Positions 22,771 through 44,454 of a stretch of DNA of 64,000 bases are shown one piece after another. The translations under genes were made by a program, and so were the position numbers. Source of the stretch: Faecousia sp. (GTDB taxonomy: Bacteria > Bacillota > Clostridia > Oscillospirales > Oscillospiraceae). The stretch is taken from positions 30 through 64,029 of the forward strand of contig JAZNNE010000022.1 in the NCBI GenBank assembly GCA_045580125.1. The letters are read 5' to 3'. The notes under the pieces are model-generated. The model was not told the DNA's origin. It saw only the letters and a program-made list of their open reading frames with translations, and made no database searches. Position 1 is the first letter of the stretch. Each line of letters begins with the position of its first letter.

Positions 22771-22799
22771 TTGCGAACAGCCAAAATCTATGGTACAAT
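22771..22799 (+). promoter_or_regulatory. sigmaA promoter (rightward)
   Basis: TTGCGA-17 bp-TACAAT with TGG extension. Confidence 0.8.
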
Positions 22800-22832: not shown

Positions 22833-23354
22833 ATGTCTTTTTGTTCTAACTGCGGCAAATCCCTGACCGAAACCGATAAGTTCTGCAAGTACTGCGGCAC
22901 TGCAGCTCCCGCAACGGCCGAGCCCGTAACTCCCGTGGCTCCTGCTCCGCAGCCGACTCCCGTAACCCCCGTGACTCCCGTAGCGCAGCCCGCCCCTACC
23001 GCTGTGCAGACTGCTCCCGTTTACACTGTACCCAGCTGCTCCAAGAAGGCTAAGGCTCTGGGCTTTGTTGGTATGGGTCTGGGTATCGGCGGTCTGGTTT
23101 TTGCAGTTCTGGGCATTCTGTACACCTTCATCGGCTTGGCAGTGGACGAGATTCTTGGCTTTACCTATGCCTTTGTTTTTGGCATTTTCTCTATGCCCCT
23201 GAGCATTGTTGGCAAGATCCTGAGCGGCAACAGCCAGGATGCGGGCAATTGCTCCGCACCTCCCTCCGTCGGCTCCAAGCTGGGCCTCGCAGGCATCATC
23301 GTTACCGCTGTAATGCTGTTCATCGGCTTTATCTGCCTGGTTTCTATCGCTTAA
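22833..23354 (+). CDS. Zinc-ribbon membrane protein
   Basis: MSFCSNCGKSLTETDKFCKYCG, PVTPV-rich linker, three TM helices; AAGGAGG RBS before ATG 22833. Confidence 0.85.
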   Translation: MSFCSNCGKSLTETDKFCKYCGTAAPATAEPVTPVAPAPQPTPVTPVTPVAQPAPTAVQTAPVYTVPSCSKKAKALGFVGMGLGIGGLVFAVLGILYTFIGLAVDEILGFTYAFVFGIFSMPLSIVGKILSGNSQDAGNCSAPPSVGSKLGLAGIIVTAVMLFIGFICLVSIA

Positions 23355-23374
23355 TACGTACTGTTCCAAATTCG

Positions 23375-23407
23375 TTTCCGCCGGTCTGCTGCCGGCGGAA
23401 ACTGTTT
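23375..23407 (+). terminator. Probable terminator hairpin
   Basis: TTTCCGCCGG-tctgctg-CCGGCGGAAA followed by ACTGTTT. Confidence 0.55.
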
Positions 23408-23425: not shown

Positions 23426-25345
23426 ATGGACAGAGAGATCAAAAACATCATGCGCTGCAACCAGCAGCTGCTGGAAAGCTCGCCAAAAGATCTGAAATCG
23501 CTTTTCAATATCATATTCCGTTCGCCCGATTGCGTCTTGTGCGAAACCAACGACGGCTTTCGCATTCATACGCAAACCTACGGTCAGATCCATAGCCGGA
23601 TCTGTACCGCAGCAAATGCTCTGTATGCCAAGCTCGGCGCCACCCACAGCTACATCGCTCTGGAGATGGAAAACTCTCCGGACTGGATCGTAGCTTTTTG
23701 GGCTATTTTGATGAGCGGCAACAAGCCCTACCTGGTCAACACCCGCTATCCCGCGCACCTGAGCAACAGCATTCTCGGCACCCTGCAGGTGGAATACATT
23801 CTCTGCACCAAAGATACGCAGCTTTCCGGTCAGGCTATCCCTCTGTCCCAGCTGGCAGGAGATTTTCCCTGCGTCCCGGAGGATGTTTTTGAAAACGAAC
23901 TGGCTTTCTCCTCCTCTGCTACCTCTATGAAAGAGGTCATTTGCTTCTATACCGGTTTGCAAATTTCCGAGCAGGTCCTGAATTTCCCGCAAATCGTCAA
24001 AGAAAATCCCCAAATCGTCGCCCATTACAAGGGCAAGCTGAAGCAGCTGGCATTTCTGCCTTTTTACCACGTATTCGGTCTGTTTGCCGTATTTTTCTGG
24101 TTTACATCCCTTGGACGAACATTGGTTTTCCTGCCCGATTACAGTGCAGATTCCATTTTGAAAACCTGCCGACGTCATAAAGTTACCCATATCTTTGCAG
24201 TGCCCGCCCTTTGGCACACGGTTGAAAAGCAGCTTTCCTCCGAAGTCGCCAAGCTGGGCGACAAAAAACAGGCACAGCTGCAAAAATCCCTTGCATTTTT
24301 TACAACGCTTCAAAATCTTTTCCCCCGCTTGGGCGCTAAGTTGGCAAAGCGTTCCTTGCGGCAGATCACCGACAAGCTGTTCGGTCAGTCCGTTCTGTTT
24401 TGCATCAACGGTGGCAGCTATCTGCGGGACTCTGCGATGGCGCTGCTCAACGGCATCGGCTATAACCTGCACAACGGCTACGGTATGAGTGAAATCGGCA
24501 TAACCTCGGTGGAGCTGCGGCATCGTCCCAAGCACCGGAATCTGAATTCCATCGGTCACCCCTTCTCTGCGGTAGAATACCGCTTGGATGAAAACGGCAT
24601 TTTGCAGGTCAGAGGCGGAACCGTATGCACGAAAAAGCTGGTAAACGGCAGCAGCGTACAGCTGGACGACTGGTTCCACACCGGCGACCAGATGAAGTGC
24701 GTGGACGGTCATTACTACATTCTCGGTCGGCAAAGCGATGTCGTGATCGGTGAAAGCGGCGAGAACATCAATCCGGATATGATCGAAAAAGCATTTATTG
24801 TCCACGATGTTACGCAGCTATGTGTTCTGGGTCTGCCCGGTGAAAACGGTCAGGAGCTCTCGCTGGTGGCTCAAATCAGCCCCTACACCACCGGGAACCG
24901 CATTGAGCAGATCAAAAAGCGCATCTACCAAATCAACGAAACCTTCCCGCTTGCCATTGGCATCAAGCACTTCTATTTCACATACGACGAACTGGCATCT
25001 GCATCCGCCATCAAGGTCAGCAGAACGCAGTTGCTTCAAAAAATCGAGAATGCCCAGGTAAATCTGACTGCATTCCATCAATTCAAGCCCCGGGAAGCCC
25101 AGCAGGGCGAACAGTCCGCGCTGTTCCTGGCAGTTCGGAAGATTATCGCGCAGGTTTTGGTTGTCGACGAAGCGGATATTCTCGACGACACCCACATTTT
25201 CCACGATCTGGGCGCGACCAGCATCCAGTATTTTTCCATCCTTTCCGCATTGGCAGAGCAATTTTCCGTCTCCGCCTTTGACAGCAGCGATACCTATTGC
25301 TATACCCCCAGGGAAATCTGTGAATATTTAGAGAGAAAATTGTGA
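23426..25345 (+). CDS. AMP-binding (acyl-adenylate-forming) enzyme fused to a C-terminal carrier (ACP/T) domain
   Basis: FLPFYHVFG, NGYGMSE, WFHTGD, ILGRQSD..GENINP, IKVSR; C-terminal HDLGATS phosphopantetheine Ser motif. Confidence 0.88.
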   Translation: MDREIKNIMRCNQQLLESSPKDLKSLFNIIFRSPDCVLCETNDGFRIHTQTYGQIHSRICTAANALYAKLGATHSYIALEMENSPDWIVAFWAILMSGNKPYLVNTRYPAHLSNSILGTLQVEYILCTKDTQLSGQAIPLSQLAGDFPCVPEDVFENELAFSSSATSMKEVICFYTGLQISEQVLNFPQIVKENPQIVAHYKGKLKQLAFLPFYHVFGLFAVFFWFTSLGRTLVFLPDYSADSILKTCRRHKVTHIFAVPALWHTVEKQLSSEVAKLGDKKQAQLQKSLAFFTTLQNLFPRLGAKLAKRSLRQITDKLFGQSVLFCINGGSYLRDSAMALLNGIGYNLHNGYGMSEIGITSVELRHRPKHRNLNSIGHPFSAVEYRLDENGILQVRGGTVCTKKLVNGSSVQLDDWFHTGDQMKCVDGHYYILGRQSDVVIGESGENINPDMIEKAFIVHDVTQLCVLGLPGENGQELSLVAQISPYTTGNRIEQIKKRIYQINETFPLAIGIKHFYFTYDELASASAIKVSRTQLLQKIENAQVNLTAFHQFKPREAQQGEQSALFLAVRKIIAQVLVVDEADILDDTHIFHDLGATSIQYFSILSALAEQFSVSAFDSSDTYCYTPREICEYLERKL

Positions 25346-25346
25346 T

Positions 25347-25976
25347 ATGAACGAAAACATTTGGCTTGTCCGATTCTGCCTCGGCTTTGTAAAGCTTACC
25401 GGTCTTTTCCCGGCATGGCTGTATCTGAAGCCCCGGATCCGTCTTGCTTCCGGTGCAAAACGCCGGTTGCCCAAATCCTGCATTTTGGTCAGTAACCATA
25501 TCAGCCTGATGGATTTTGTGGTGTACCTGCTGGTATTTCCCTCCCGCACCATTCGGTTTTTGATCGCAGAGGTGCTGTATAACCGCGGCAAGCTCTTTGC
25601 GCGGTTTCTGAACCTGATCGGCGGCATTCGGGTGGATCGGGACGCCAAAAACTTCGACTTCGTTTCCCATTCCCTGACCGTGCTGGACAACGGTGGCGCC
25701 ATCGGCGTATTCCCCCAGGGTCGCCTGCCTGTCAAAGGACAGCATTTCCCCTTTACTGCCAGCACCGCATTTATCGCCCTGCGCACCGATGCGCCCATCA
25801 TTCCGGTATACACCGACGGCAATTACGGTCTTACCAAGCGTGCCGGCGTTGTTATCGGCGCCCCCCTCTATCTGCATGAGCATTGCTTGGACAACGTCAG
25901 CGAACAGGAACAGCTGACCCATCTGACAAAACTGCTGGAAGAGAAAGTTTACGCACTGAAAGAGGAACTGAACTGA
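25347..25976 (+). CDS. plsC: PlsC-type lysophospholipid acyltransferase
   Basis: SNHISLMD (HX4D), VFPQG, APIIPV. Confidence 0.85.
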   Translation: MNENIWLVRFCLGFVKLTGLFPAWLYLKPRIRLASGAKRRLPKSCILVSNHISLMDFVVYLLVFPSRTIRFLIAEVLYNRGKLFARFLNLIGGIRVDRDAKNFDFVSHSLTVLDNGGAIGVFPQGRLPVKGQHFPFTASTAFIALRTDAPIIPVYTDGNYGLTKRAGVVIGAPLYLHEHCLDNVSEQEQLTHLTKLLEEKVYALKEELN

Positions 25977-25978
25977 CT

Positions 25979-26617
25979 ATGGGCAAGACAAAGAAATTAT
26001 GCTTCCGCCACAATATGCCGGCTATGGATGCCGCGCGGCTTGTTTGTATGCCTTTGCTGCTGCTGTGGCGTATGAAGCGGCTGAATCCCGACGGCACAAA
26101 ATATACCGGCCGCATCCGCGGCGGTGCGATCGTTGCCGCCAATCACACCTCTTTTGCAGATCCCTTTCTTGTAGGTGTTGCCGTTTGGTACCGCCGGCTG
26201 TTTTTCCTTGCAGCCGAAGCAGTTATGGGAGGGAAACTGCGCACCTGGCTTCTTAAGGGCGTAGGCGCCATTAAGATCGACCGCAACTGCGCCGATATCG
26301 AAGCAATACGCAAATGCGTCAGCGTGCTGAAAAGCGGCTACCTGCTTTCCGTTTTTCCCCAAGGTGGCATCACCGGCGAGGATACGGTCTCGTCCATCAA
26401 ATCCGGCGCGATTCTGATGGCGCTGCAGGCGGGTGTTCCCATCGTACCGATGCACATCTGCCCTCCCAAGCACTGGTACAGCCGCCGGGTGGTCATTATC
26501 GGCAATACCGTCGATCCCAAAAATCATGTGGCAAACAAATTCCCCTCCACCAAGGACATCGAGAAGATCTCTCAGATCCTGATGGAGGAAATGAATCACT
26601 GTATGATATCTCAGTAA
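25979..26617 (+). CDS. plsC: PlsC-type lysophospholipid acyltransferase (second copy)
   Basis: ANHTSFAD, VFPQGG, IKSGAILMALQAGVPIVP; true start 25979. Confidence 0.85.
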   Translation: MGKTKKLCFRHNMPAMDAARLVCMPLLLLWRMKRLNPDGTKYTGRIRGGAIVAANHTSFADPFLVGVAVWYRRLFFLAAEAVMGGKLRTWLLKGVGAIKIDRNCADIEAIRKCVSVLKSGYLLSVFPQGGITGEDTVSSIKSGAILMALQAGVPIVPMHICPPKHWYSRRVVIIGNTVDPKNHVANKFPSTKDIEKISQILMEEMNHCMISQ

Positions 26618-26629
26618 GGAGCAAGCATT

Positions 26630-26872
26630 ATGCAAACACTGGAACGGTTGATCAAAGTCTTCAATGTTGTATTCGAAGACAGCATTGATATCAGCGCATT
26701 CAAGCCGGAAGCCTCTCTTCGTGAGGACCTTGGTATGAACTCCATCGGTCTTCTATATATGGCAATGGCCGTTGAAGAGGAATTCGGCATTAAGTTCAAT
26801 AACGACGATTTCGCTTCCATCTGCACTGTAGCAGATGTGGTTGCGTGCATCGAAAAGAAATGTCAGAGATAA
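26630..26872 (+). CDS. Stand-alone acyl carrier protein
   Basis: 80 aa, acidic, EDLGMNSIG motif, VEEEFGIKF, TVADV. Confidence 0.9.
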   Translation: MQTLERLIKVFNVVFEDSIDISAFKPEASLREDLGMNSIGLLYMAMAVEEEFGIKFNNDDFASICTVADVVACIEKKCQR

Positions 26873-27273
26873 GCTGGTCTGAAAAGACCCCTGTTTTCGG
26901 GGACATCGTCCGCACAAAGGTACAGTTTTATCATCACTACGGTATTTTTGTGTCTGAAAACGAGGTGATCCAGTTTGGTCTGCCGGACGATCCCTTTCGC
27001 CCCGCCTGCCAGATCCGTGTGATCAGCACAGACGTTATGACATTTCTGCAAGGCGGCGATCTGGAGGTCTTGACGCCCGATCGCAGCACCCGCAGTCAAA
27101 TGCGCAGTCCGGAGCAGATCGTATCCATCGCCCGCGGACGCCTTGGCGAAGACGGATATGATATTTTGCACAACAACTGCGAACACTTTGTAAATGACTG
27201 TGCCTTTGGAAAACCCCACTCCTCCTTTGTGCAGGACGTGCGGGAAAAACTGCGAAAAAAACTGGGAAAATAG
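26860..27273 (+). CDS. LRAT/PLAAT (permuted NlpC/P60) family acyltransferase or phospholipase
   Basis: N-terminal GDIV...YHHYGIF and C-terminal YDILHNNCEHF catalytic motifs. Confidence 0.85.
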   Translation: MSEISWSEKTPVFGDIVRTKVQFYHHYGIFVSENEVIQFGLPDDPFRPACQIRVISTDVMTFLQGGDLEVLTPDRSTRSQMRSPEQIVSIARGRLGEDGYDILHNNCEHFVNDCAFGKPHSSFVQDVREKLRKKLGK

Positions 27274-27284
27274 ACGTTTTCGTC

Positions 27285-27869
27285 TTATTCTCCCAGTATC
27301 TGTATGAAATAATCATCTACAACGCATAATTGCCGTTGTAGCGGCAGGATGTTGACTGCTTTCAAGTCGGTGATTCCGGTGCCGCATTTTTTGTAGTACG
27401 CCTCTTTGGCTGTCCAAATTTCAAAAAACCGCCGCAGGATGCTTTCATCGCAGCACAGCTGCTGCCAGGTTTCCTCCGCCCCTGCCGCCAGATATTCCAT
27501 CTCCTCCGGCACGCATACGTGCTTGCAAATGTTCAGTTTAATGGGTCGAATGCGCTCAATATCGATCCCCACCGGGGCATCGCTGATGGCGCACGCTACC
27601 ATTTGGTCGCAGTGGGATATGCTCACGTGCATTTCGCAGCCGGTGAGGTATGGCTGACCTTTGCTTGTGCAATGCAGCTTCGCAGAATCGGTATTCGCCT
27701 GCTTTTGCAGCAGTTCATAGACCAGACATTCCGCCGCCAAAGACCGTTTTCGGTCCTCTTCCCGGCGCAGGCGGTCGATACGCTCTTTTCTGGATGGCGA
27801 CAACTGCCGGTAAATGCATTGCAGCTGCGCCTCGGTATATTCTGTTATTTTACGGCAAGCCCAATGCAT
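27285..27869 (-). CDS. Sfp-type 4'-phosphopantetheinyl transferase
   Basis: KGQPYL, VSISH, VGIDIE, WTAKEAYYK..GTG. Confidence 0.93.
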   Translation of the reverse strand: MHWACRKITEYTEAQLQCIYRQLSPSRKERIDRLRREEDRKRSLAAECLVYELLQKQANTDSAKLHCTSKGQPYLTGCEMHVSISHCDQMVACAISDAPVGIDIERIRPIKLNICKHVCVPEEMEYLAAGAEETWQQLCCDESILRRFFEIWTAKEAYYKKCGTGITDLKAVNILPLQRQLCVVDDYFIQILGE

Positions 27870-27923: not shown

Positions 27924-27955
27924 GGTAATCATCTGAAACAAGGAGGCAATTGGAT

Positions 27956-28582
27956 ATGTGGATTGTATATTCCCTACTTGCGCTCCTGGCGATCATCATT
28001 ACCGTCATATTGGTATTGCCGGTAAAGGTGATCATAAAGAATGATAAGGATGACATTCTCATCCTGCGTTACCGGCTGCTTTTTAAAACCTACGGCGAAG
28101 ATCCGGACCCCAACGACCCCATTCTCAAGGCTCTGAAAAAAGCCGGCGGTATCGATCGGTTGGAAAAAGCCGCTGTGCAGCAAAACATCCAAACGGACGG
28201 TCTGCAGGAAACGATTACGGAAAGCTATTCCCTTTTGATCGACCTTTTGAAAGAACTGCTTTTCCTTCTAAAAAATTGTACGGTAACAAAGCTGGATATT
28301 CACATTCTCAGCGCCGGCGATGATCCTGCCCAGGCAGCCATCAACTACGGCATTTACCAGGCCGCGACCCACACGCTTCTGTCTGTGCTGGGTCAGTTCC
28401 TGAAAATCCGTAAGCGGGCCCGTAAAATCGACATTCGCTGCGATTTTAATGAGCCGGCTCCGGTCTTCCGCTATCACGTCGTCCTGGCAGTGCCCTTCGC
28501 CCGAGTGTTAGCCGCCTTCTGGCGTGCCACTATGGCAGAAGTCAAGCGCACCGCCGAGGAAACGAAAAATCAGCAAAAATGA
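27956..28582 (+). CDS. Membrane-anchored conserved hypothetical protein (DUF2953-like)
   Basis: N-terminal TM helix; DDPAQAAINYG and IDIRCDF segments resemble DUF2953 proteins (from memory). Confidence 0.6.
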   Translation: MWIVYSLLALLAIIITVILVLPVKVIIKNDKDDILILRYRLLFKTYGEDPDPNDPILKALKKAGGIDRLEKAAVQQNIQTDGLQETITESYSLLIDLLKELLFLLKNCTVTKLDIHILSAGDDPAQAAINYGIYQAATHTLLSVLGQFLKIRKRARKIDIRCDFNEPAPVFRYHVVLAVPFARVLAAFWRATMAEVKRTAEETKNQQK

Positions 28583-29544
28583 TCCAGCACCTGCTGCACG
28601 TGGGCAGCAACGGTCTGCTCTTTATCGCATAATATGGCGTGAGTGGCGCCCGGCTGCACGATCCGGCGGCACATTTCGCATTTCTCTGCAAATTTCTGCT
28701 GCACCTGATTGCATACGGTTTTGTCGTTTTCTGCGCTGATCATCAAAATCGGCGTGCGGATCTTTTTCAAAAATCTTCTGCTGGTCAGCCTGCCGCGCAA
28801 GCTCACAGACTGCTGTACCCAGCGAATGGTTTGCGGTGTGGTGCAATAGCAGGGGTTCTGGTGCCGCCGTTCCATATTGAGTTGGAAACGGGCACGGCTT
28901 CTGTCGTGGGCGCGCTCAAACGGATAATTGGGATCATATTCACCGGCTGTCCAGCTTTTCTTTTTCCCTCTGCCTGCCAGTATGTGCAATGTCATTGCCC
29001 CATAGGCAATGGGTATCGGTATGCCGTTGGTCAACGGCTGGATCATAGGCGCGGACAGCACCGCCTTTTGGAACGTGTCCGTATGCTCTGCCAGATACTG
29101 AGCTGCCACCGCACCGCCCATAGAATGGGCATACAAATACAGCGGTCCATCGGTAACCGGTCGCACAACATCGCAAATAAACTTGTGCAGATCCTTCCGG
29201 TAATCGGAAAAACGATCCACGTGGATTAGATCAAGTCGCTCCGTAAGTCTGCAGGATCTGCCGTGGCAACGCTGGTCGTAGAGGAATACATCGTAGCCCT
29301 GATTCAGCAAATACCAGGCAAACTCGTGATATTTTTCCGTAAATTCGCTAAGTCCGTGCAGAATGACCACCGCGCCGCGGCTGTCTTCTGCCTGAAAATA
29401 TTCGTAATAGAGCGATGCTCCGTCAAACCCTTCAAAATTGCCCGTCTTCCGGCACTGCAGCAACTGCTGCGTGATGGCAGTCATCTGCTCCCGAAAAGTT
29501 TCCTCGGGCAGAACAGAAAACTGATAACTAGGTTTGATTTTCAC
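28570..29544 (-). CDS. Lysophospholipase L2-like alpha/beta-hydrolase
   Basis: VILHGLSEFTEKY, YDQRCHGRS, YAHSMGG nucleophile elbow, LSAPM, AENDKTV, GATHAI; GTG start 29544 with GAGGTG RBS. Confidence 0.88.
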   Translation of the reverse strand: MKIKPSYQFSVLPEETFREQMTAITQQLLQCRKTGNFEGFDGASLYYEYFQAEDSRGAVVILHGLSEFTEKYHEFAWYLLNQGYDVFLYDQRCHGRSCRLTERLDLIHVDRFSDYRKDLHKFICDVVRPVTDGPLYLYAHSMGGAVAAQYLAEHTDTFQKAVLSAPMIQPLTNGIPIPIAYGAMTLHILAGRGKKKSWTAGEYDPNYPFERAHDRSRARFQLNMERRHQNPCYCTTPQTIRWVQQSVSLRGRLTSRRFLKKIRTPILMISAENDKTVCNQVQQKFAEKCEMCRRIVQPGATHAILCDKEQTVAAHVQQVLDHFC

Positions 29545-29576
29545 AAAATCACCTCTGCTTATAATTTCCAGAAAAG

Positions 29577-30527
29577 TTGGTGATAATCTTGATATCTGCA
29601 AAGAAATCTCGCTTCAAAAGGATATCGGTTATCATTATTGCCATTATTTTCTCTTTTTGTGCCGTTTCTCTGGTGGCAACAAAATTTGTTTACGACAGCA
29701 TTTTTGCCCGCTACGATCAGCCCGCGGACATTCCCCAAGCGCTTAACGCCACTGTGGAGCAGCGGCAAACCTGCCAATTCTCCTCCGGGGAGAATCTGCT
29801 GGCGGGCTATTATTACCGCGCAGCTCAGCCCAACCAAACCAACGCCCTGGTGGTGCTGGTTCCCGGCTTCCACGCCGGCGGGGACGACTATTTGTGGCAG
29901 ATCCACGAACTGCTGGAATACGGCTGGAACGTTTTCACCTTTGATACCACCGGCACGCTTCAATCCCAGGGCGACAGCCAAATCGGCTTTTCCCAATCCC
30001 TGCTGGATCTGGAGGCTGCCTTGGAATATATTCGGAATAACCAAAAATTCGGTCATTCCCAGCTCGTCCTGATGGGACACAGCCGGGGCGCGTATGCCGC
30101 CTGCTGCGCTTTGTCCCGGGAGCAGGATATTGCCGCCGTTGTTTCTGTCAGCGGTGTCAACAGTGCTATGGAGGCCATTATGCAAATGAGCGTCCAGGCG
30201 GTCGGTCCTGTCAGCTACGGTAACTACGGCTTTCTTTGGCTCTATCAGGTCTCCCTGTTCGGCGCCGACACCCTGAATCAGGACGCAGCCCAAGCCATTT
30301 CCGACAGCGACGTGCCTGTGCTTATGATCCACGGCACCCGCGATACGCAAATCCCAATGGACGACAGCTCCATTATTTCCTACAAAGAGCAAATTACCTC
30401 CACCGAGGTAGAATATCTTCTGTGCGATGCCGGGCATACAGATCTGCTGTACGATGCCGACGGCACAGCCAGTGACACACTCATCGCCTACGTTCACGAT
30501 TTCCTGCTTCGCAGCTTAAATAAATAA
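29577..30527 (+). CDS. Membrane-anchored alpha/beta-hydrolase
   Basis: N-terminal TM, VLVPGF, GHSRG elbow, IHGTRD, AGHTD; exact start uncertain. Confidence 0.82.
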   Translation: MVIILISAKKSRFKRISVIIIAIIFSFCAVSLVATKFVYDSIFARYDQPADIPQALNATVEQRQTCQFSSGENLLAGYYYRAAQPNQTNALVVLVPGFHAGGDDYLWQIHELLEYGWNVFTFDTTGTLQSQGDSQIGFSQSLLDLEAALEYIRNNQKFGHSQLVLMGHSRGAYAACCALSREQDIAAVVSVSGVNSAMEAIMQMSVQAVGPVSYGNYGFLWLYQVSLFGADTLNQDAAQAISDSDVPVLMIHGTRDTQIPMDDSSIISYKEQITSTEVEYLLCDAGHTDLLYDADGTASDTLIAYVHDFLLRSLNK

Positions 30528-31601: not shown

Positions 31602-31640
31602 CAAATCGTCAAAACAATGTTTTGACGATTTGTTTTTTAT
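31602..31640. terminator. Bidirectional terminator
   Basis: CAAATCGTCAAAACA-a-TGTTTTGACGATTTG plus a T tract, between convergent genes. Confidence 0.82.
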
Positions 31641-32614
31641 TTGCTTAATTCCTCTGCCACAGCTTGGGTAAAGCCTGCTTTTTCCAGACGGAAGGCTTGC
31701 TCAATGGAAGCAACCACCGTATCCGCATTGGCTTGTCCGTGCATTTTCAGCACAGTTTTCTTCGGTCCCAAGAATGTGGCGGCGCCGCGGGAATTGAAAT
31801 CAAAGGTCTCCAGCAGAGCTTGGCGGCATTTCTCCATTTCCGGCGTGCCGTTACCGATCCGCCGTACAATTTCTGCCGCAGCTTTGCCCACGGACTCTGC
31901 GCATTTCAGCAGGAGATTTCCGCTGAAACCGTCGGTAACGATGACGTCGGCGTAATCGCTGACCAGATCGCAGCCTTCCACATTGCCCACAAAGTTCAGA
32001 TCCAACTGACTGATGCGCTCATGCGCCTGCTGGATCAGGGCTGTTCCCTTTTGCCGTTCCTTGCCCACGCTCATCAAGCCGATCCGCGGACGCGCAATGC
32101 CGCAATAGCATTTTGTAAAGGCGTGACCCATTTTTGCAAACCGGACAAGATCATCCGGCGTACACTCAATATTTGCGCCGCAATCCACAAGACACAGCAA
32201 ATTCTCCCCGTTGCAGGGCAAAGCGCTCAGCAGCGCGGGGAATTTCAGTCCCGGCAGCAGACCCAGCCGGCAGATCGAGCCCACCAGCAGCGCGCCGGTA
32301 TTGCCTGCCGAGAGCATAACGCGGCAATCTGCATCATTTTTCAGGCAGCTGTAGGCCTTGACCATAGTCGTATCCTCAGCGCCGCCAAAAATGCAGGTGG
32401 GCGGGTCTTCGTTGCGGATATACTCGCAGGCATCCACGATCTCATATCGGGACGGATCGATACCGCGCTGCGTCATGATCTTCTGCAGCGCCTGCTCCGG
32501 TCCAATCAGAACCGGAAAGATATCCAAACCCTTTTCCAGCGCCATTGCCGCGCCGGTTACAATAGGTTCATAGCCGGCATCTGCACCCAGGGTGTCAATA
32601 ACGATCTTTGTCAT
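31637..32614 (-). CDS. plsX: Phosphate acyltransferase (acyl-ACP:phosphate transacylase)
   Basis: IVIDTLGAD, SAGNTGAL, DCGANIEC, GNVEG, DVIVTDGFSGNLLLK, GAATFLG, KMHG. Confidence 0.9.
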   Translation of the reverse strand: MTKIVIDTLGADAGYEPIVTGAAMALEKGLDIFPVLIGPEQALQKIMTQRGIDPSRYEIVDACEYIRNEDPPTCIFGGAEDTTMVKAYSCLKNDADCRVMLSAGNTGALLVGSICRLGLLPGLKFPALLSALPCNGENLLCLVDCGANIECTPDDLVRFAKMGHAFTKCYCGIARPRIGLMSVGKERQKGTALIQQAHERISQLDLNFVGNVEGCDLVSDYADVIVTDGFSGNLLLKCAESVGKAAAEIVRRIGNGTPEMEKCRQALLETFDFNSRGAATFLGPKKTVLKMHGQANADTVVASIEQAFRLEKAGFTQAVAEELSK

Positions 32615-32619
32615 AGTGC

Positions 32620-34257
32620 TTACTCCAAAGAAATAATGAAGTCATAAACGCCCTGCTTGCCGTCTACAAAGCCGGTATCCACCAGAGGATATTCCGTCTG
32701 CATAAACGCCTGCAGCTGCTGCGCCTCATCTTCGGACACACTTTCTCCATAGAAGACGATGACAACATCCTTCGGTTCCGCAGTCATCAGCTTGGTGATC
32801 AGCGCCTTGGCCGTTTCCAGATTGCTGCTGCCGGTGGAGAGTACGTGATGCCCGTCCAGACCGATATAGTCGCCCTTTTTGATATTGATGCCGTCCAGAT
32901 GCGCATCACGGACAGCGGTGGTTACGTATCCGGTGGTAACCTGACCCAGGTTCATAGACATATCTTCCACCAGTTCTTCCACCGTATCGCTCCACAGATT
33001 CATCATAGAAAGTGCAGAATAGCCCTCAGCAATGGACTTCGTGGGGATCACCCGCACATCGGAATCGGTATAGGCGTCTGCAGCCTGATTGGCTGTCAGA
33101 ACGATATTGGAGTTGTTGGGCAGCACCACAATATGCTCCGCATTGACGCTTTTGAACGCGTCCAAAAATGCGTTTACGGAAGGATTGTTGGTCTGACCGC
33201 CGTCAATGATGTATGTGGCGCCGATTTCACGGAAATAGTCCTGAATGCCCGCGCCGGATGCCACGGCAACAACTGCGTATTTTTCTTTCTTGCGCTCGAC
33301 CTGATTCTGGCTGTGCTGGACAGACATATTTTCGATCTTGACGCTGACGAACTCGCCAAACTGTCTTCCATAGCCCAGAACTTCTTCCGGAGCGAAGGTA
33401 TGGATATGGATCTTGACAATGCCGTCGTTATGGACGGAAACGATCGAATCGCCCATTGCCTCCAAAGGCTTGGTAAAGCTCTGCAGATCAAATGCAGCCA
33501 AGTCGGTTTTGTAGTTCATCAGCTGCAGCACAAACTCCGTGCAGTAGCCGTATTCCAGCCGGGTATCCGGACCGAAATCGCTGTCGCAGGCAGCAGGTGC
33601 CGACCAATCCGCAACATCTGTGCTGTCTGTAATTTCTTCGCCGTGCAGGCAGGCGCAAATACCCTCGACAAAGCACACCAGTCCTGCACCGCCGCTGTCA
33701 ACCACATTGGCCTCTTTCAGCACCGGCAGCAATTCCGGTGTTCTTTTCAGCGTAGCGGTCATCACATCCCGCAGGGCATCAAAGCCCTCTTCAAAAGAGC
33801 TGAAGGAGGTTGCATTGTCTGCCAGATATTCCGAAGCTTCCCGGATAACTGTCAGAATTGTGCCTTCTGTGGGGGTGATAATGGAATGATATGCGTCCTC
33901 AGTAGCGCAGGCAAAGGCTTGCGCCATATCCGCAAAGGTTACAGTCTCTTTTTCAGAAAAGCCGCGGTAAAGGCCGTGAACAAACTGGGAGAAAATCACG
34001 CCCGAATTGCCTCTTGCAGACAGCAGAATGCCTTTGGACAGGCCTTTCATATACTGCCCGACGTTGGTCTGCTCCGGGTCGGCAGCCTTAAGACCGCCAC
34101 CGAAGGTCATCGCCATATTGGCACCCGTATCGCCATCCGGTACAGGGAACACATTCAGGTTGTTGATCGTCTCCATATTTCTCGTCAAGTTGCTGTATCC
34201 GCTGAGAAACAGCTTGTGAAGACCGATACCGTCCAACGAATTTGACATATTACTCAT
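32620..34257 (-). CDS. fakA: DAK2-domain fatty acid kinase catalytic subunit
   Basis: INNLNVFPVPDGDTGANM, ARGNSGVIFSQ, EGTILTV, VDSGGAG, YGYCTEF, KIHIHT, GGQTNNPS. Confidence 0.95.
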   Translation of the reverse strand: MSNMSNSLDGIGLHKLFLSGYSNLTRNMETINNLNVFPVPDGDTGANMAMTFGGGLKAADPEQTNVGQYMKGLSKGILLSARGNSGVIFSQFVHGLYRGFSEKETVTFADMAQAFACATEDAYHSIITPTEGTILTVIREASEYLADNATSFSSFEEGFDALRDVMTATLKRTPELLPVLKEANVVDSGGAGLVCFVEGICACLHGEEITDSTDVADWSAPAACDSDFGPDTRLEYGYCTEFVLQLMNYKTDLAAFDLQSFTKPLEAMGDSIVSVHNDGIVKIHIHTFAPEEVLGYGRQFGEFVSVKIENMSVQHSQNQVERKKEKYAVVAVASGAGIQDYFREIGATYIIDGGQTNNPSVNAFLDAFKSVNAEHIVVLPNNSNIVLTANQAADAYTDSDVRVIPTKSIAEGYSALSMMNLWSDTVEELVEDMSMNLGQVTTGYVTTAVRDAHLDGINIKKGDYIGLDGHHVLSTGSSNLETAKALITKLMTAEPKDVVIVFYGESVSEDEAQQLQAFMQTEYPLVDTGFVDGKQGVYDFIISLE

Positions 34258-35137
34258 TTCCTTCGATCAGTACTTCTTTTCCGTAGCTAAACGCGACGAC
34301 TGTGCCGGGACCAACGGAAGCGCCAACAATGGGTCCGATGGCGCTGATATAAACCTGCTTAAACGGAGCCAGCTTCAGGATCTCAGCCTTCAGCAGTTCC
34401 GCCTCTTCCAGGCAATCCGCATGGGTGATCAGCAGCTCGTTGTAGGTGCCGTCGGCGGCATCTACGATATGCTCAGCAATTGCTGTGCGGGCATTGGCAG
34501 CGCCCTTTGCCTTCTTGTGCGCATAGTTCTGACCCTTCCGGTCGGAAATGATCAGGGGCTTAACGCCGAACAGATTGCCGAAAAATGCCTTGGAGGCCTT
34601 AACGCGACCTGCACGTCGCAGATATTCCAGAGAAGCAACCGTGCCGCACTGATTGACGCACAGCTTGATGCTTTCAATGTACTCCGCAGTTTCCGCAGCG
34701 CTCAAACCGGCGGAACGCTTCCGGGATGCTTCCATCACCAGATAGCCCTGACCCAGAGAGCTGATCAGAGAGTCGATGCAGTAAATACCGGCATCGGGAT
34801 ATTCCGCTGCCATCTCCTGTGCCACCAGACGGGCTGCATTGATCGAAGCGGACAGAGCAGAGGAGCAGGAAATATACACAATATCCTTACCTGCATCCAA
34901 CGCACTCTTAAATGCATTGTAGTAAGCGTCCTTGGGAACCTGGGTGGTGAAAACCCGCTTGCCGTTGCGCATCAGATCGTAAAAGTCCTTAACTGTGTGA
35001 GACTCCCAGTCCAGAGAAGCCTTATACTCCGTGCCGTCCACAACATAATTCATTGGGACATATTCTACACCATACTCCTGACGCATCTGCAGCGGCAGAT
35101 CACAAGTAGAATCGGAATAAATAACAAATTCTCTCAT
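34250..35137 (-). CDS. fakB: DegV-family fatty acid binding subunit
   Basis: SDSTCDLP, FTTQV, CSSALSAS, IDSL, LEYLRRAGRV, GPIVGASVGPG. Confidence 0.92.
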   Translation of the reverse strand: MREFVIYSDSTCDLPLQMRQEYGVEYVPMNYVVDGTEYKASLDWESHTVKDFYDLMRNGKRVFTTQVPKDAYYNAFKSALDAGKDIVYISCSSALSASINAARLVAQEMAAEYPDAGIYCIDSLISSLGQGYLVMEASRKRSAGLSAAETAEYIESIKLCVNQCGTVASLEYLRRAGRVKASKAFFGNLFGVKPLIISDRKGQNYAHKKAKGAANARTAIAEHIVDAADGTYNELLITHADCLEEAELLKAEILKLAPFKQVYISAIGPIVGASVGPGTVVAFSYGKEVLIEGNE

Positions 35138-35149
35138 ACTAAAATCTCC

Positions 35150-36091
35150 TTATTTTTTCTGAGCACTGATAATGCTGTCCATCAGTGCCTGTTCATATTT
35201 CATATCCTCGCTGATTTCCTTGCCCCAGTAAAATGCTGCGCACAAACCGGGACCGATGGAAGCACCGCAGGACATACCAACGTGGTTAATAATAATTTCC
35301 TTGGGAGAAAACTCCTCCTGAATACGCTGAGCAAGCACCTCTGCCGACTTTTCCCGATCGGAATGGGCTACAAAAATGATCTGCTCGCCGGGATTTTCGA
35401 TGGTGCCCTTCATATATTCAATTACGGCGTCAAAGGCATTCTTCTTGCCCTTAAACTTTCCCAGCACCTGAGACAGTCCCTTGCGGTTAAAGTCCGCCAT
35501 AGGGTTAACGCCGATCAGGGTGCCGAAGAACGCCTTGAAATTGGAGATACGGCCGGTCTTCACCAGGAAGAACAAGTCGTCCATCGGACCGATCTGGTGC
35601 ACGCGGTGCTTATTCGCCTCCACATACGCCGCCGTCTCTTCCAGAGAACAGCCTTCCTGCTGCAGCTGCGCAGCCTTTACCACCAGAAGCGTCAGAGCCG
35701 TGGAATACCGCAGCGAATCCACAATAACGATCTTGCGCTGGGGATACTTTTCCAGCAGCTCCTGGGCAACACCGTGGCAAACCTGATTGGTGCCGGACAA
35801 GGCAGAGGAAAGTGTGATCGCCAGGATATCCTTGCCTTCTTTCAGGAAGTGCTCATAGACGGAGAATACCTCGCCTCTTTGTGCGCTGGCCGTCTTATAC
35901 GGAGCTCTCCGACCGGACATAGATTTATAGTATGTTGTGGGATCGAGCAGTTCCCAGTCCAGATCTGCCAGATACTCTTTGCCATCCTGCAAATAAATCG
36001 TTCCGTGAATATATCCGGGCACGCCAAAGCGTTCCCGCAGTTCTTTGGTCATATCAGATGATGCATCGGGGATAATCACAAAATCAGACAT
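35150..36091 (-). CDS. fakB: DegV-family fatty acid binding subunit (second copy)
   Basis: PDASSDM, YKTAS, LSSALSGT, VDSLRYS, LVKTGRI, SIGPG; true start 36091. Confidence 0.92.
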   Translation of the reverse strand: MSDFVIIPDASSDMTKELRERFGVPGYIHGTIYLQDGKEYLADLDWELLDPTTYYKSMSGRRAPYKTASAQRGEVFSVYEHFLKEGKDILAITLSSALSGTNQVCHGVAQELLEKYPQRKIVIVDSLRYSTALTLLVVKAAQLQQEGCSLEETAAYVEANKHRVHQIGPMDDLFFLVKTGRISNFKAFFGTLIGVNPMADFNRKGLSQVLGKFKGKKNAFDAVIEYMKGTIENPGEQIIFVAHSDREKSAEVLAQRIQEEFSPKEIIINHVGMSCGASIGPGLCAAFYWGKEISEDMKYEQALMDSIISAQKK

Positions 36092-36145
36092 TGAACTCAG
36101 CCCTTTCTTGTTTGTGTTCACAATGTGTTCATAAGCATCTGTGTA

Positions 36146-36174
36146 ATAATACCACACTCTCCCTTTCTTTTCAA
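36146..36174 (-). promoter_or_regulatory. sigmaA promoter of the fakB-fakB-fakA-plsX operon
   Basis: TTGAAA-17 bp-TATTAT with TGG extension. Confidence 0.72.
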
Positions 36175-36279
36175 CATCTTTTTCATTTTTTCGACGTTTT
36201 GCGACAAAAAACAGATGCATTTTTCCAAAAGCTGTGATATAATGTTTTATCGATATATTAATGTTTTTGGGAGGCACTT

Positions 36280-37236
36280 ATGGAGTACCTGATTCCCCTG
36301 GCTATCGCGCTGGCTGTTTTGCTGTCAGGTGGCCTGATTTTTATGCTGATTTACACATATCCCATCTCGAAACGGGTCTACGAAGACCAGCTGGTACGCA
36401 CATCCCCGGAAAAGTGGGGCTACGCCTGCACCTTCCCTGACGATGCTGAGCAAGTGCAAATGTGGCACGACGGCATTGCGTGGATGGAACAAAACCGGGA
36501 TCGCATTACCGAGCTGCAAATCGAAAACGAAGGTCTGCAGCTGTTTGGTCAGTATTTTGACTTTGGCGCGGATCGCTGCGTGATCATTCTGCCCGGTCGC
36601 TGCGAAAGCCTGATTTACTCCTACTATTTTGCGCCCCCTTATGAAAAGGCCGGCTTCAACGTTCTCGTGATCGATACGCGCTGCCACGGCAGAAGCGACG
36701 GCAAATACAACACCATCGGTCTGCAGGAAAGCAAGGATGTCCTGGCCTGGGCAAAGCTCGCCCACGAACAGTTCGGCAATCAGGAGATCTACTTCCACGG
36801 CATCTGCATCGGCACCTCCTCGGGTCTGTTTGCCCTGACCTCCAAAAATAGCCCCAGCTATCTGCGGGGTCTGGTCACGGAAGGCTGCTACGTTTCCTTC
36901 CCTGAAACCTTCAAGCGCCATATGATGGCGCTGAAGCGCCCGCTGTTCCCGGTGCTGCAGCTGGTTATGATGCATATCTATCGCCACACCGGCACCAATG
37001 TCTACCGCTACAAGCCCATTTCCGCTATTCGCCGGCTGAAGCCCGACTGCCGTGTTCTATTCTTATACGGCGAGCAGGACATCTTTTCCATTCCGGCGAA
37101 AAGCCGCAAATTATTCGCCGCCTGCTCCTCTCAGGACAAGAAGCTGATTTGGTTCAGCCGCGGCGGCCATTCCCATCTGCGTATCAACAACACCGAAGCC
37201 TACGACCGGGCAATTATTGATTTTTTAGGGAAATAA
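36280..37236 (+). CDS. Membrane-anchored alpha/beta-hydrolase with a Cys at the nucleophile elbow
   Basis: N-terminal TM, IILPG, IDTRCHGRSDG, FHGICIG, YGEQD, GGHSH. Confidence 0.8.
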   Translation: MEYLIPLAIALAVLLSGGLIFMLIYTYPISKRVYEDQLVRTSPEKWGYACTFPDDAEQVQMWHDGIAWMEQNRDRITELQIENEGLQLFGQYFDFGADRCVIILPGRCESLIYSYYFAPPYEKAGFNVLVIDTRCHGRSDGKYNTIGLQESKDVLAWAKLAHEQFGNQEIYFHGICIGTSSGLFALTSKNSPSYLRGLVTEGCYVSFPETFKRHMMALKRPLFPVLQLVMMHIYRHTGTNVYRYKPISAIRRLKPDCRVLFLYGEQDIFSIPAKSRKLFAACSSQDKKLIWFSRGGHSHLRINNTEAYDRAIIDFLGK

Positions 37237-42196: not shown

Positions 42197-43021
42197 TTAC
42201 ATCGTCTTGCGATAATTTTCCAGATTCAGATCTGTGTTGTAGGTAGGATCGCCGGGATTGATGCCGTTCATCACCTGCATAATGTGGTACGCATCCTGCT
42301 GCATTTTCTTCACAGCCTCCAGCTTCGGCAACGACTTGTCCCGATAGATCGGGTCGCCGATATTCACATCCACCAGCGGCGTCTTGCCGATCAGCTTCCA
42401 CAAGCCCGTTCTGGGGCGGAAGGAAAAGGTGATGGGCAGGATCGGACGGTCATAGCTGACGGCGTACTTAAACACCGCTTTTTTCAGCGGGCGAATATCC
42501 GGATAGTAGTACCACATAGAGCCCTCCGGGAAAAAGTGCAGCCACTCCTTCTTTTCCAGGACCTCTTCGATGGCTCCCATAAACTTTGCCATAGACCGGT
42601 GGTTGTCTGTCGGAACCGGAATGCCGCCGGACATACGGATCCACGTTTTGTTGGAGCCTTCCAGATTGGTCTTCCAAACCGGAAAATAGCCAATATGAGG
42701 GCGCAGAACAACCAGAAGCGTGGCATAGTCCATAAACATAACGTGGTTAGAGATGGTGATCAAGCCCTCTTTAAACAGTTCCTTATAGGATTTTACCTTT
42801 TTTCTGTCGTGGACGCGTATGCCATAGGCCAGCCAGACCACCAATGGCAGCAGCGTATTCTGAAGCGCCCGCAGCAGTACCCGCTGACACCGGAACCAGA
42901 AGCCCTTCGGTAAATAAGGATAATTTTCGTCCAGATTCACATCCCGCAGATGCTTTACCTTCAGCATATGCCCATCGCATTTATCCGGATATGTATAGTC
43001 AAGGTTGTGTCTGTAATACAT
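42197..43021 (-). CDS. PlsC-type acyltransferase (third copy)
   Basis: SNHVMFMD (HX4D), HFFPEG, RPILP. Confidence 0.82.
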   Translation of the reverse strand: MYYRHNLDYTYPDKCDGHMLKVKHLRDVNLDENYPYLPKGFWFRCQRVLLRALQNTLLPLVVWLAYGIRVHDRKKVKSYKELFKEGLITISNHVMFMDYATLLVVLRPHIGYFPVWKTNLEGSNKTWIRMSGGIPVPTDNHRSMAKFMGAIEEVLEKKEWLHFFPEGSMWYYYPDIRPLKKAVFKYAVSYDRPILPITFSFRPRTGLWKLIGKTPLVDVNIGDPIYRDKSLPKLEAVKKMQQDAYHIMQVMNGINPGDPTYNTDLNLENYRKTM

Positions 43022-43191: not shown

Positions 43192-44286
43192 TTACGGCAG
43201 CGCCTTATTGAACATATTCAGAATATCCTGCATCATTTCCCCATTGACCTCACTGTACAAGGCGTGGTCAACACCGCTGCAGAATTCCGCCTGTTCTTCC
43301 CAGGTCAGATCCCGGTCGTATTCCTTCTTCAGCTGTTTCAGGTCTTTTGCAACCTTTTCCTGATAGGCAACGGCGCGCAGCGAGTGCAAAATCGTATTGT
43401 GTCCCGCCTGAGGACCGGTGCCAACGTAATACGTTACATTTTTACTCCGGATCTCATCTTTGTGAGAAATAACGGATTGATGCGCATAGCCAATAACGAA
43501 ATCACGGGTTCCGTGGGCAATATAGACCGGAATGTCGGTGCTGTTAATACCCCGCACGGCATCGTATTTTGTGTAGTCCTTAAACAGCAGCTTTTGATAC
43601 GCATTCAAAAAGTCCTTGGGAAAATCAAATTTCACCATATCTGCGAAGGGCGCCATATATTGGTCTCCCTTTTCCACGAACAGCGTATAGCCGCTGTTAA
43701 ACGGAGCTACCGCTGCGCATCCGCGGACATTTTTGTGGATAGAAAGCACCGATGTTGCCGCGTAGCCGCCCCAGGAATGTCCGAACAGGAACAGCGGGTA
43801 TTTAGACAGCCGCTTGTTGCTTTTGATATAGGTCAAGGCGTGATCCAAATTCACCAAGGGCGTGCACATACCCACGGTAGAATCGCCCTCAGAGGCGTAT
43901 GTACCCTGACAATCGTAGGAAAACACAGCATATCCGTTGTTGACAAAGTATTCAATAAACGGAATGTAATCGTCTGAGCCGGCATGCATACCGTGGCAAA
44001 CCACGACCATTCCCTTGGCGTTGGGGCAGGGATAGAAATAGCCCTGAAGCTTCAACCGACCGCTGGGAAAGAAAAACGTGGTCCGCTGCAGCTTATTTTC
44101 CACGCGACTGTAATCAAATTCACCGAATACCGTATTGATATCCCGTTTTTCATATCTTTTGAAGAAGGAATCGTACGCAGTCTTCGCTCCCAGGATCGTT
44201 CCCAGCTGAAGACCTGTGCGCAGCGCGAGCCCCGCAAGCGCTTTTGCGTCATTCATAAAGCGTCCGCTTTGCTCTTTGTTTTCCAC
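43192..44286 (-). CDS. Alpha/beta-hydrolase (serine aminopeptidase/lipase-like)
   Basis: VVCHGM, YDCQGT..SEG, FGHSWGG, AHGTRD, AGHN; GTG start 44286. Confidence 0.85.
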   Translation of the reverse strand: MENKEQSGRFMNDAKALAGLALRTGLQLGTILGAKTAYDSFFKRYEKRDINTVFGEFDYSRVENKLQRTTFFFPSGRLKLQGYFYPCPNAKGMVVVCHGMHAGSDDYIPFIEYFVNNGYAVFSYDCQGTYASEGDSTVGMCTPLVNLDHALTYIKSNKRLSKYPLFLFGHSWGGYAATSVLSIHKNVRGCAAVAPFNSGYTLFVEKGDQYMAPFADMVKFDFPKDFLNAYQKLLFKDYTKYDAVRGINSTDIPVYIAHGTRDFVIGYAHQSVISHKDEIRSKNVTYYVGTGPQAGHNTILHSLRAVAYQEKVAKDLKQLKKEYDRDLTWEEQAEFCSGVDHALYSEVNGEMMQDILNMFNKALP

Positions 44287-44454
44287 TGTGCAAACCCCCT
44301 TGTTTAGATTATTGTTTGCCGGCTTTGTGCCGGTAACATCTGCTTGCCCATTCAGTTTAGCACAGTTTTTTGGATTTTTCAACAGCTCGGTTTGCGGTAT
44401 CCGACGGGCACTACGCCTGGTGAAGCTACTTCGCATTCATCTAACCGTTATTGC

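Follow-up and report, generated by a model that had tools for sequence, protein, structure and literature searches.

A compact acyl-activation and acyl-transfer operon in Faecousia as a candidate fatty-acid salvage module of gut Oscillospirales

The 64,000-nucleotide stretch of Faecousia sp. DNA analysed here (hereafter the window) carries five tightly packed genes on the forward strand, g1 to g5, which run head-on into a sixth gene, g6, on the reverse strand (Table 1, where u and n mark flanking genes). These encode an adenylating enzyme fused to a carrier domain, two acyltransferases of the PlsC family, a stand-alone acyl carrier protein (ACP), an LRAT/PLAAT-type enzyme and a phosphopantetheinyl transferase (PPTase). 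The initial annotation of the window had described this six-gene layout and its spacings, and both were confirmed, with every open reading frame in its place and all labels upheld by Pfam. Gaps of 1, 2 and 12 nt separate the first four genes, g4 and g5 overlap by 13 nt, and the convergent stop codons of g5 and g6 lie 11 nt apart. The five forward genes form a single operon, in which g5 is translationally coupled to g4. A longer frame for g3, beginning from a TTG at 25883, was rejected as orthologues gave it no backing. The source genome (G000) is 1.54 Mb in size and 94% complete.

Conservation of the operon was scanned using one genome per species. Relatives of g1 were detected in approximately 258 species genomes, all uncultured gut or rumen metagenome-assembled genomes assigned to Faecousia, Oscillospiraceae and Acutalibacteraceae, with a few labelled Lachnospiraceae. 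Hundreds of g1 homologues share 60–75% identity, all are metagenomic, and they are annotated at best as "AMP-binding protein [Oscillospiraceae]". Among the 65 related loci with enough downstream sequence, the order g1-g2-g3-g4 was kept in every case (65/65), hence the g4 ACP was always present (65/65), and g5 came next in 63. The two acyltransferase genes are fused to encode one protein of ~425 aa in 20 of these loci. Furthermore, the catalytic residues of the operon proteins are at least 98% conserved across the 71–80 orthologues over which residue conservation was computed. This conservation of gene order far exceeds chance, and together with the Pfam domains and the preserved active sites it shows that the dedicated operon for acyl activation, carriage and transfer proposed in the initial annotation is real. 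It is not universal, as a g1 relative was found in 21 of 301 sampled Oscillospirales genomes (~7%). Our literature search found no description of this gene set, nor of a cytoplasmic bacterial LRAT enzyme coupled to an ACP. The operon is the compact member of an uncharacterised operon family, which takes up the re-acylation theme of Aas-type systems and adds an ACP–LRAT unit.

Table 1. Features of the operon and its surroundings in the window. Fractions give the number of related flanks in which a gene recurs; TM, transmembrane; GT2, glycosyltransferase family 2.
Feature	Position	Strand	Details
g1, ANL adenylating domain + carrier (T) domain	23426-25345	+	639 aa; Pfam AMP-binding + PP-binding
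g2, PlsC-family acyltransferase, Aas/LpaT-like clade	25347-25976	+	209 aa; PF01553
g3, second PlsC-family acyltransferase	25979-26617	+	212 aa from ATG; PF01553
g4, stand-alone ACP	26630-26872	+	80 aa; PP-binding
g5, soluble LRAT/PLAAT-type Cys-His acyl-enzyme	26860-27273	+	137 aa; PF04970
g6, Sfp-type PPTase	27285-27869	-	194 aa; PF01648 + PF22624
Promoter-like site, TTGCGA-17-TACAAT	22771-22799		Upstream of u1
u1, zinc-ribbon membrane protein	22833-23354	+	173 aa; Pfam Zn_Ribbon_1; directly upstream of g1
GC-rich hairpin, 12 bp, weak T tail	23374-23402	+	u1-g1 spacer, 24 nt before g1 start
n7, small membrane-anchored protein	27950-28582	+	Weak DUF2953 match; syntenic
n8, cytosolic alpha/beta hydrolase, lysophospholipase L2 (PldB)-like	28570-29601	-	Hydrolase_4 8e-44; 41/55
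n9, alpha/beta hydrolase with N-terminal TM anchor, candidate lipase/esterase	29577-30527	+	43/55
n10, GT2 polyprenyl-phosphate glycosyltransferase-like, C-terminal TM helices	30551-31573	+	Syntenic
plsX	31637-32614	-	45/55
fakA	32620-34257	-	Pfam FakA-like_C, Dak2
Two fakB/DegV genes	34250-35137, 35150-36277	-	Pfam DegV
Alpha/beta hydrolase, Cys nucleophile FHGICIG	36280-37236	+	Next to fakB

The g1 protein joins an AMP-binding domain (Pfam, 3.6e-34) to a PP-binding domain at residues 570-635, and so has the architecture of an adenylation–thiolation didomain, in which the carrier, with the phosphopantetheine serine Ser599, lies in cis behind the adenylation domain. An AlphaFold2 model (pLDDT 84.5) takes the form of an adenylation–peptidyl carrier protein (A-PCP) didomain, and its structural matches include the A-PCP didomains of McyG and the carboxylic acid reductase CAR, 4-chlorobenzoate ligase, MenE, MatB and AasS. 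In sequence, the protein is closest to ligases of aryl and short acids (4-chlorobenzoate ligase, MenE), and its nearest NCBIfam models are long-chain fatty-acid-CoA ligase and MenE, all matched far below their cut-offs. Prediction of the substrate from sequence or fold was not decisive, with MenE, MatB, 4-chlorobenzoate ligase, AasS and the A-PCP didomains matching about equally. Of the ANL core motifs, A5 (YGMSE), A7 (TGD), A8 (GRxxD) and the A10 lysine (Lys530) are retained and invariant in g1 orthologues, as is Ser599. The A3 motif, or P-loop, is degenerate: it reads SSSATSMKEV in the window (residues 159-172, window 23900-23940), is invariant as SSSATSM(N/K)EV in the close family, and occurs as SSGTTGxxK in distant g1-like proteins. 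Compared with the canonical loop, the two glycines and the lysine are missing. We infer that g1 is a self-loading acyl-carrier synthetase.

Both acyltransferases are members of PF01553 (6e-16 for g2, 1e-20 for g3), and the single PDB sequence match of g2, the Thermotoga maritima PlsC 5kym, was also found for g3. The HX4D motif is present in each, as NHISLMD in g2 (NHxSLxD in its family) and NHTSFAD in g3, with at least 98% conservation, and the block II arginine is conserved in both. Block III, which binds glycerol phosphate according to mutagenesis of PlsB and PlsC, is changed. In g3 it is a conserved FPQGG instead of the FPEGTR that is the norm for PlsC, and in g2 it is FPQGR in the window and FPEGR in the consensus. 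Scores against the acylglycerol-phosphate acyltransferase (AGPAT) model TIGR00530 are 45.6 bits for g2 and 67.8 bits for g3, below the cut-off of 102.95, hence with their altered block III the two are family members and not PlsC orthologues. The best NCBIfam model for g2 is the Aas-type PRK08633, at 57 bits against a cut-off of 1221, whereas g3 comes closest to the AGPAT domain.

In a phylogenetic tree, the two acyltransferases fall into two old clades (support 99/93 for g2, 98/99 for g3) with mirror-image topologies, the g3 clade lying nearer the other PlsC paralogues of the cell. Fusions of the two have at least three independent origins, always with the g2 type at the N-terminus and the g3 type at the C-terminus, and g2 is the PlsC type that partners g1-like genes even in minimal operons. 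As distinct, old, co-inherited clades which have been fused independently at least three times, neither gene is redundant, and on this point too the initial annotation, which had suggested separate roles for them, stands.

The stand-alone carrier g4 (PP-binding, 5e-10) has an invariant phosphopantetheine serine in a (D/N)S motif, and is distinct from an AcpP-like gene elsewhere in the genome (contig C85, 43242-43577). Its partner g5 is a clear member of PF04970 (3e-19, 69.8 bits against a cut-off of 24.3) with a sequence match to PLAAT3 (4dot, 4e-6). Foldseek matched its AlphaFold2 model (pLDDT 86.9) to PLAAT2, PLAAT3 and PLAAT4 at a probability of 1.00 and template-modelling scores of 0.72-0.82. 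His26, Gln38 and the segment N105-NCEHF-110, which includes Cys107, are invariant, and His26 and the NCEHF cysteine align with the catalytic residues of PLAAT3. The norm for the LRAT/PLAAT family is a Cys-His-His triad (PMC10318531). This triad is incomplete in g5, where the invariant Gln38 aligns with His35 of PLAAT3; the third triad residue is reported to be non-essential in LRAT and LnsA (PMC13559823). No hydrophobic or transmembrane segment was found in g5, and it has no C-terminal membrane anchor.

The g5-type gene always adjoins an ACP gene; some relatives have it as a fusion with the PPTase, behind the gene of a dedicated ligase (ligase2). The order ligase2, ACP, LRAT::PPTase in these distant relatives suggests that the LRAT enzyme takes acyl groups from the ACP. 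Ligase2 is absent from the compact family, therefore the acyl group on g4 would have to come from g1 acting in trans, from acyl-phosphate through PlsX, or from phospholipid through g5. The view that the six genes are self-contained had to be given up, as no loader dedicated to the free ACP is encoded here, and its conserved partners (the lipases, plsX, fakA, fakB and the Cys-hydrolase) all lie outside the interval first singled out.

The PPTase g6 is of the Sfp type, with PF22624 and PF01648 forming the two lobes of a pseudo-dimer and with conserved GIDIE and WTAKEA motifs. It gave the sole PF01648 match in this 94%-complete genome at E ≤ 0.1 and, being the only PPTase, must also serve AcpP (C85) and DltC (C13). 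It lies convergent with and adjacent to the operon in just 35 of 61 relatives, so the initial description of g6 as the operon's own PPTase does not hold. A single PPTase of Sfp length per genome is usual across Oscillospirales. A specific tie between an Sfp-type PPTase and the cluster was ruled out, since relatives lacking the cluster also have one PPTase of similar length. In three genomes (G082, G060 and G072) an LRAT::PPTase fusion is the only PF01648 PPTase (L097:12917-13951, L101:12881-13915 and L098:4077-5084), and general carrier activation is there physically tied to the LRAT domain.

No ketoacyl synthase (PF00109) was found in the source genome, and tblastn searches with the fab/acc cluster of a relative found no FabK, FabD, FabF, FabZ, AccD or AccA. 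With neither type II fatty-acid synthesis (FASII) nor acetyl-CoA carboxylase, the organism is therefore a fatty-acid auxotroph. Using ketoacyl synthase as a marker, we surveyed FASII in the 301 Oscillospirales genomes, of which 150 possessed it, including 3 of the 21 g1-positive genomes against 147 of the 280 g1-negative ones (Fisher p = 0.001). None of the 11 genomes with a close g1 orthologue has a ketoacyl synthase, and the three which combine it with a g1 relative carry the most distant relatives (30–36% identity). Ketoacyl synthase was absent from 151 of the 301 genomes, hence fatty-acid auxotrophy looks common in Oscillospirales. In G235, a genome labelled as congeneric, a fab cluster lies on a contig of 65% GC; the window is ~50% GC, and with this mismatch the genus label may be loose.

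Genes for ordinary lipid synthesis are present in addition to the operon. The genome encodes PlsY, PlsX, FakA, two FakB proteins, a better-scoring PlsC (C20) and AcpP (C85), has a complete dltABC on C13, and contains six PF01553 genes (g2, g3, the C20 PlsC and three further paralogues). A housekeeping role for g2, g3 and g4 as the only PlsC and ACP of the cell was ruled out by these six PF01553 genes, the separate AcpP and PlsY. A separate PlsX/PlsY/PlsC/AcpP set and the ~7% occurrence make the operon accessory and not part of core phosphatidic-acid synthesis, as the initial annotation had proposed. Other PF01553 sites were noted at C1:19241-20425 and C90:5906-7180, and within the window a PF01553 acyltransferase is paired with a hydrolase (42197-43021 and 43192-44436, both on the reverse strand). 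At C20:16804-19517 the housekeeping-like PlsC is divergent to a canonical acyl-CoA-ligase-like gene.

The neighbourhood of the operon is also conserved. Down to ~55% g1 identity, the order is u1, g1-g5, PPTase, small membrane protein, L2-like hydrolase, membrane-anchored hydrolase, GT2 and plsX. The n8 hydrolase reaches 148 bits against the lysophospholipase L2 model PRK10749, below its cut-off. Further downstream, the reverse-strand plsX-fakA-fakB block (31637-36277) constitutes the acyl-phosphate route for exogenous fatty acids. In distant relatives (30–39% g1 identity), the same functions are packed into single co-directional operons. Two of these (L095, L102) have the order FakA, MFS_2, g1-like, g2-type PlsC, Cys-hydrolase, and two others (L097, L101) the order g1-like, PlsC, canonical ligase2, ACP, LRAT::PPTase, hydrolase, DegV, MFS_2, FakA. 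A fifth (L096) adds to this a PlsC-PlsC fusion and a glycyl-radical enzyme pair. Lysolipid carriers such as Mfsd2a belong to the MFS_2 family. The recurrent operon partners are thus fatty-acid kinase parts, lipases and a transporter.

The window and the longer operons (L096 to L101) share the g1-like didomain, PlsC, ACP and LRAT proteins (30–51% identity) and the association with DegV, FakA and a hydrolase. They differ in that the window has no ligase2 or in-operon transporter, its LRAT and PPTase are separate, convergent genes, and there is a second PlsC. Moreover, its g1 P-loop is degenerate and its Fak genes belong to an adjacent operon on the reverse strand. The Cys-hydrolase beside fakB shares 44% identity with its L095 counterpart, and the motif FHGICIG is common to both and to L102. 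In these relatives the hydrolase gene (L095:753-1835; L102:6271-7380) directly follows the g1-like and PlsC genes. The window hydrolase is the orthologue of that of the minimal operons and a possible thioester-forming partner in the system. In L097 and L101, the hydrolases carry Ser in place of this Cys.

Two loci showed unusual additions. The glycyl-radical enzyme of L096 (PFL2-3 family, 728 aa) and its radical-SAM activase are inserted between ligase2 and the ACP-LRAT genes (L096:14168-17178). At L100:5921-9229, a g1-like adenylation–thiolation protein is fused to a pyridoxal-phosphate enzyme resembling BioF and serine palmitoyltransferase (1102 aa), which suggests acyl-carrier-fed synthesis of a sphingoid-type base.

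On balance we favour, with modest confidence, an accessory, split Aas-like module which brings exogenous fatty acids into glycerolipids, or re-acylates lysolipids, with an additional ACP–LRAT acyl-transfer step. The context speaks for salvage of preformed fatty acids by a cell without FASII, and not for a secondary-metabolite line. In the first step, g1 would adenylate a free fatty acid and thioesterify its own carrier domain. The Aas/LpaT-like g2 and the PlsC-like g3 would then each move a carrier-bound acyl group to a hydroxyl of a glycerol-based acceptor, with two positions filled; candidate acceptors are a lysophospholipid, a glycerophosphodiester or glycerol 3-phosphate. A second unit would consist of g4 and g5, with g5 taking an acyl group as a Cys107 thioester and passing it on, more likely from acyl-ACP to an acceptor than from phospholipid to ACP. 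Both carriers would be converted to their holo form by g6, the general PPTase of the cell, and the hydrolases nearby, together with the Fak/PlsX system, could supply acyl groups. In its simplest form the model comprises two loader-carrier-transferase units, the first formed by the g1 didomain and the PlsC enzymes, and the second, in the long operons, by ligase2, ACP and LRAT.

Several observations weigh against this salvage reading. The P-loop of g1 lacks both glycines and the lysine, therefore its adenylation activity is not assured, and neither fold nor sequence discriminates fatty acids from aryl or small acids. Both PlsC proteins are under the NCBIfam cut-offs, and with FPQG for FPEG in the acceptor-binding block, the acceptor of g3 may differ from glycerol phosphate. 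No transporter is present at this locus; the genome has its MFS_2 homologue on a different contig. The association with FASII loss is in part phylogenetic, as the 11 close orthologues fall in 6 genera and the test is therefore not phylogenetically independent. Finally, a complete Fak/PlsX/PlsY/PlsC route is already present, and the need for a second one is unexplained.

The strongest competing explanation, which we nevertheless consider unlikely, is that put forward by the initial annotation, a specialised-metabolite line for a non-membrane or otherwise non-standard diacylated lipid. For example, the g1 carrier could bear a small polyol, hydroxy acid or amine, to which g2 and g3 would each add an acyl group before g5 frees the product, perhaps a lipid that acts on the host. 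In favour of such a line are the two carriers, the two acyltransferases of which neither is redundant, a Cys-His enzyme that could off-load a product, the accessory distribution (21/301 genomes), the FPQG of g3, and g1 with its atypical adenylation domain and ambiguous substrate prediction. Gut Clostridia, moreover, make signalling fatty-acid amides by carrier-based pathways (Oaa, similar to nonribosomal peptide synthetases; PMC13310621). An Oaa pathway itself was ruled out here, with no condensation domain (OaaC) in the operon or its flanks. More generally, however, no condensation, ketoacyl synthase, FkbH, reductase or other tailoring domain was found in or near the operon, and the partners which recur with it (FakA, DegV, PlsX, lipases, MFS_2) belong to primary lipid salvage. 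The genomes with close orthologues are also all FASII-less (0/11 with ketoacyl synthase), and synteny with plsX across families indicates a vertically inherited, core-like locus and not a mobile biosynthetic cluster.

A variant concerning g4 and g5 reverses the direction of the second unit. The pair could harvest acyl groups without ATP, g5 taking them from host, dietary or the cell's own phospholipid as a Cys107 thioester and delivering them to the phosphopantetheine thiol of g4, after which the acyl-ACP would let both PlsC enzymes rebuild lipids. This use of g5 as a loader fits because the ACP of the compact family has lost its dedicated ligase. To our knowledge, a phospholipid:ACP transacylase activity is undescribed for any enzyme, and we regard the idea as rather doubtful.

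We rate as more doubtful again a redundant route to ordinary phosphatidic acid, with g2 as glycerol-3-phosphate and g3 as lysophosphatidic-acid acyltransferase in an ATP-driven bypass of PlsX/PlsY, and with g5 as an editing thioesterase. Two consecutive PlsC-family enzymes, fused in 20/65 loci as might be expected for successive steps, would agree with it, as would the intact HX4D motif and block II arginine and the grouping of g3 with the housekeeping-like PlsC. The LRAT::PPTase fusions also recall the pairing of PPTases with type II thioesterases. However, PlsY, PlsX and a better-scoring PlsC are already encoded in the genome, g2 resembles Aas-type lysophospholipid acyltransferases more closely than AGPAT models, and FPQG in g3 alters the block which binds glycerol phosphate. 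Retention of g5 with an invariant active site in 63/65 loci likewise argues for more than editing. Least likely is an envelope modification similar to Dlt or AlmEFG, in which g1 would load a small non-fatty acid (amino, hydroxy or aryl) and the PlsC types would pass it to the head group of a membrane lipid or glycolipid: the architecture of ligase, carrier and membrane-peripheral acyltransferase, the closeness of g1 to 4-chlorobenzoate ligase and MenE, the specificity left open by its P-loop and divergence, and GT2 and Acyl_transf_3 genes nearby are in its favour, but a complete dltABC already lies on C13, long-chain fatty-acid ligases are the closest NCBIfam models for both g1 and the relatives' ligase2, fatty acids are what the DegV and FakA of the shared operons bind and activate, PF01553 enzymes typically move fatty acyl chains, and AlmG belongs to the LpxL family.

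Known systems offer precedents for parts of the salvage reading. Escherichia coli Aas, a 2-acyl-glycerophosphoethanolamine acyltransferase/acyl-ACP synthetase working with LplT, shares with the operon an ANL activating domain, a carrier-bound acyl group and a lysolipid-re-acylating PF01553 domain, of which the HX4D form is found in both g2 and g3. The operon differs, however, in that these parts are split, with the ligase fused to its own carrier and not to an acyltransferase. It also has two acyltransferases, an extra ACP and an LRAT enzyme, and the in-operon transporter of relatives is of the MFS_2/GPH type and not LplT, with none in the window locus. A separate synthetase and acyltransferase, as in g1 and g2, are known from Chlamydia trachomatis, where AasC (CT776) and LpaT (CT775) form a split acyl-ACP synthetase and lysophospholipid acyltransferase by which host fatty acids are incorporated (PMC5693948). 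Chlamydia nevertheless uses its cellular ACP, without a carrier fusion, a second acyltransferase or an LRAT enzyme, and it keeps FASII (PMC6167442).

For g5, the mammalian PLAAT/HRASLS and LRAT enzymes have in common the permuted NlpC/P60 fold, the NCEHF cysteine and the catalytic histidine, and they work via an acyl-Cys thioester. In contrast to these, g5 is a soluble core of 137 aa without a transmembrane anchor, has Gln for the third-triad His, and its gene overlaps an ACP gene. Among bacteria, LnsA of Staphylococcus aureus is an LRAT-like Cys-His acyltransferase which transfers the sn-1 acyl chain from phosphatidylglycerol to an acceptor (PMC13559823, PMC7387801). LnsA is secreted with a signal peptide, requires the membrane partner LnsB and serves lipoprotein N-acylation, whereas g5 lacks both a signal peptide and a CPBP partner and pairs with an intracellular ACP. 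The transfer of an acyl group from a dedicated ACP by a papain-fold Cys enzyme is seen in butirosin synthesis, where BtrH acylates an aminoglycoside (mentioned in PMC10318531). BtrH, however, is from a different papain-like family (BtrH_N) and handles an aminoacyl side chain in an antibiotic pathway.

Upstream of the operon, homologues of u1 precede g1 in most related loci, often as tandem copies; in L009, L010, L012 and L035 there are 2–4 diverged copies in tandem. The strong hairpin in the u1-g1 spacer might act as a leaky terminator or an attenuator. No promoter consensus was found between this hairpin and g1, and an Rfam search of the whole window, including the hairpin, returned no match. 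Possibly u1 is co-transcribed with g1, and g1-g5 may be read through from the u1 promoter-like site.

Oscillospirales without ketoacyl synthase are abundant gut and rumen bacteria, whose membranes necessarily come from host, dietary or cross-fed lipids, and in Gram-positive anaerobes membrane building beyond Fak/PlsX is poorly known. The operon family described here, present in hundreds of uncultured species, is a candidate for a second route, with private carriers, a split Aas-like pair and a PLAAT/LRAT enzyme wired to an ACP. If this is true, it would define a new way of lipid salvage or remodelling and provide the first function for a cytoplasmic bacterial LRAT enzyme, and it might explain growth requirements which keep these organisms uncultured.

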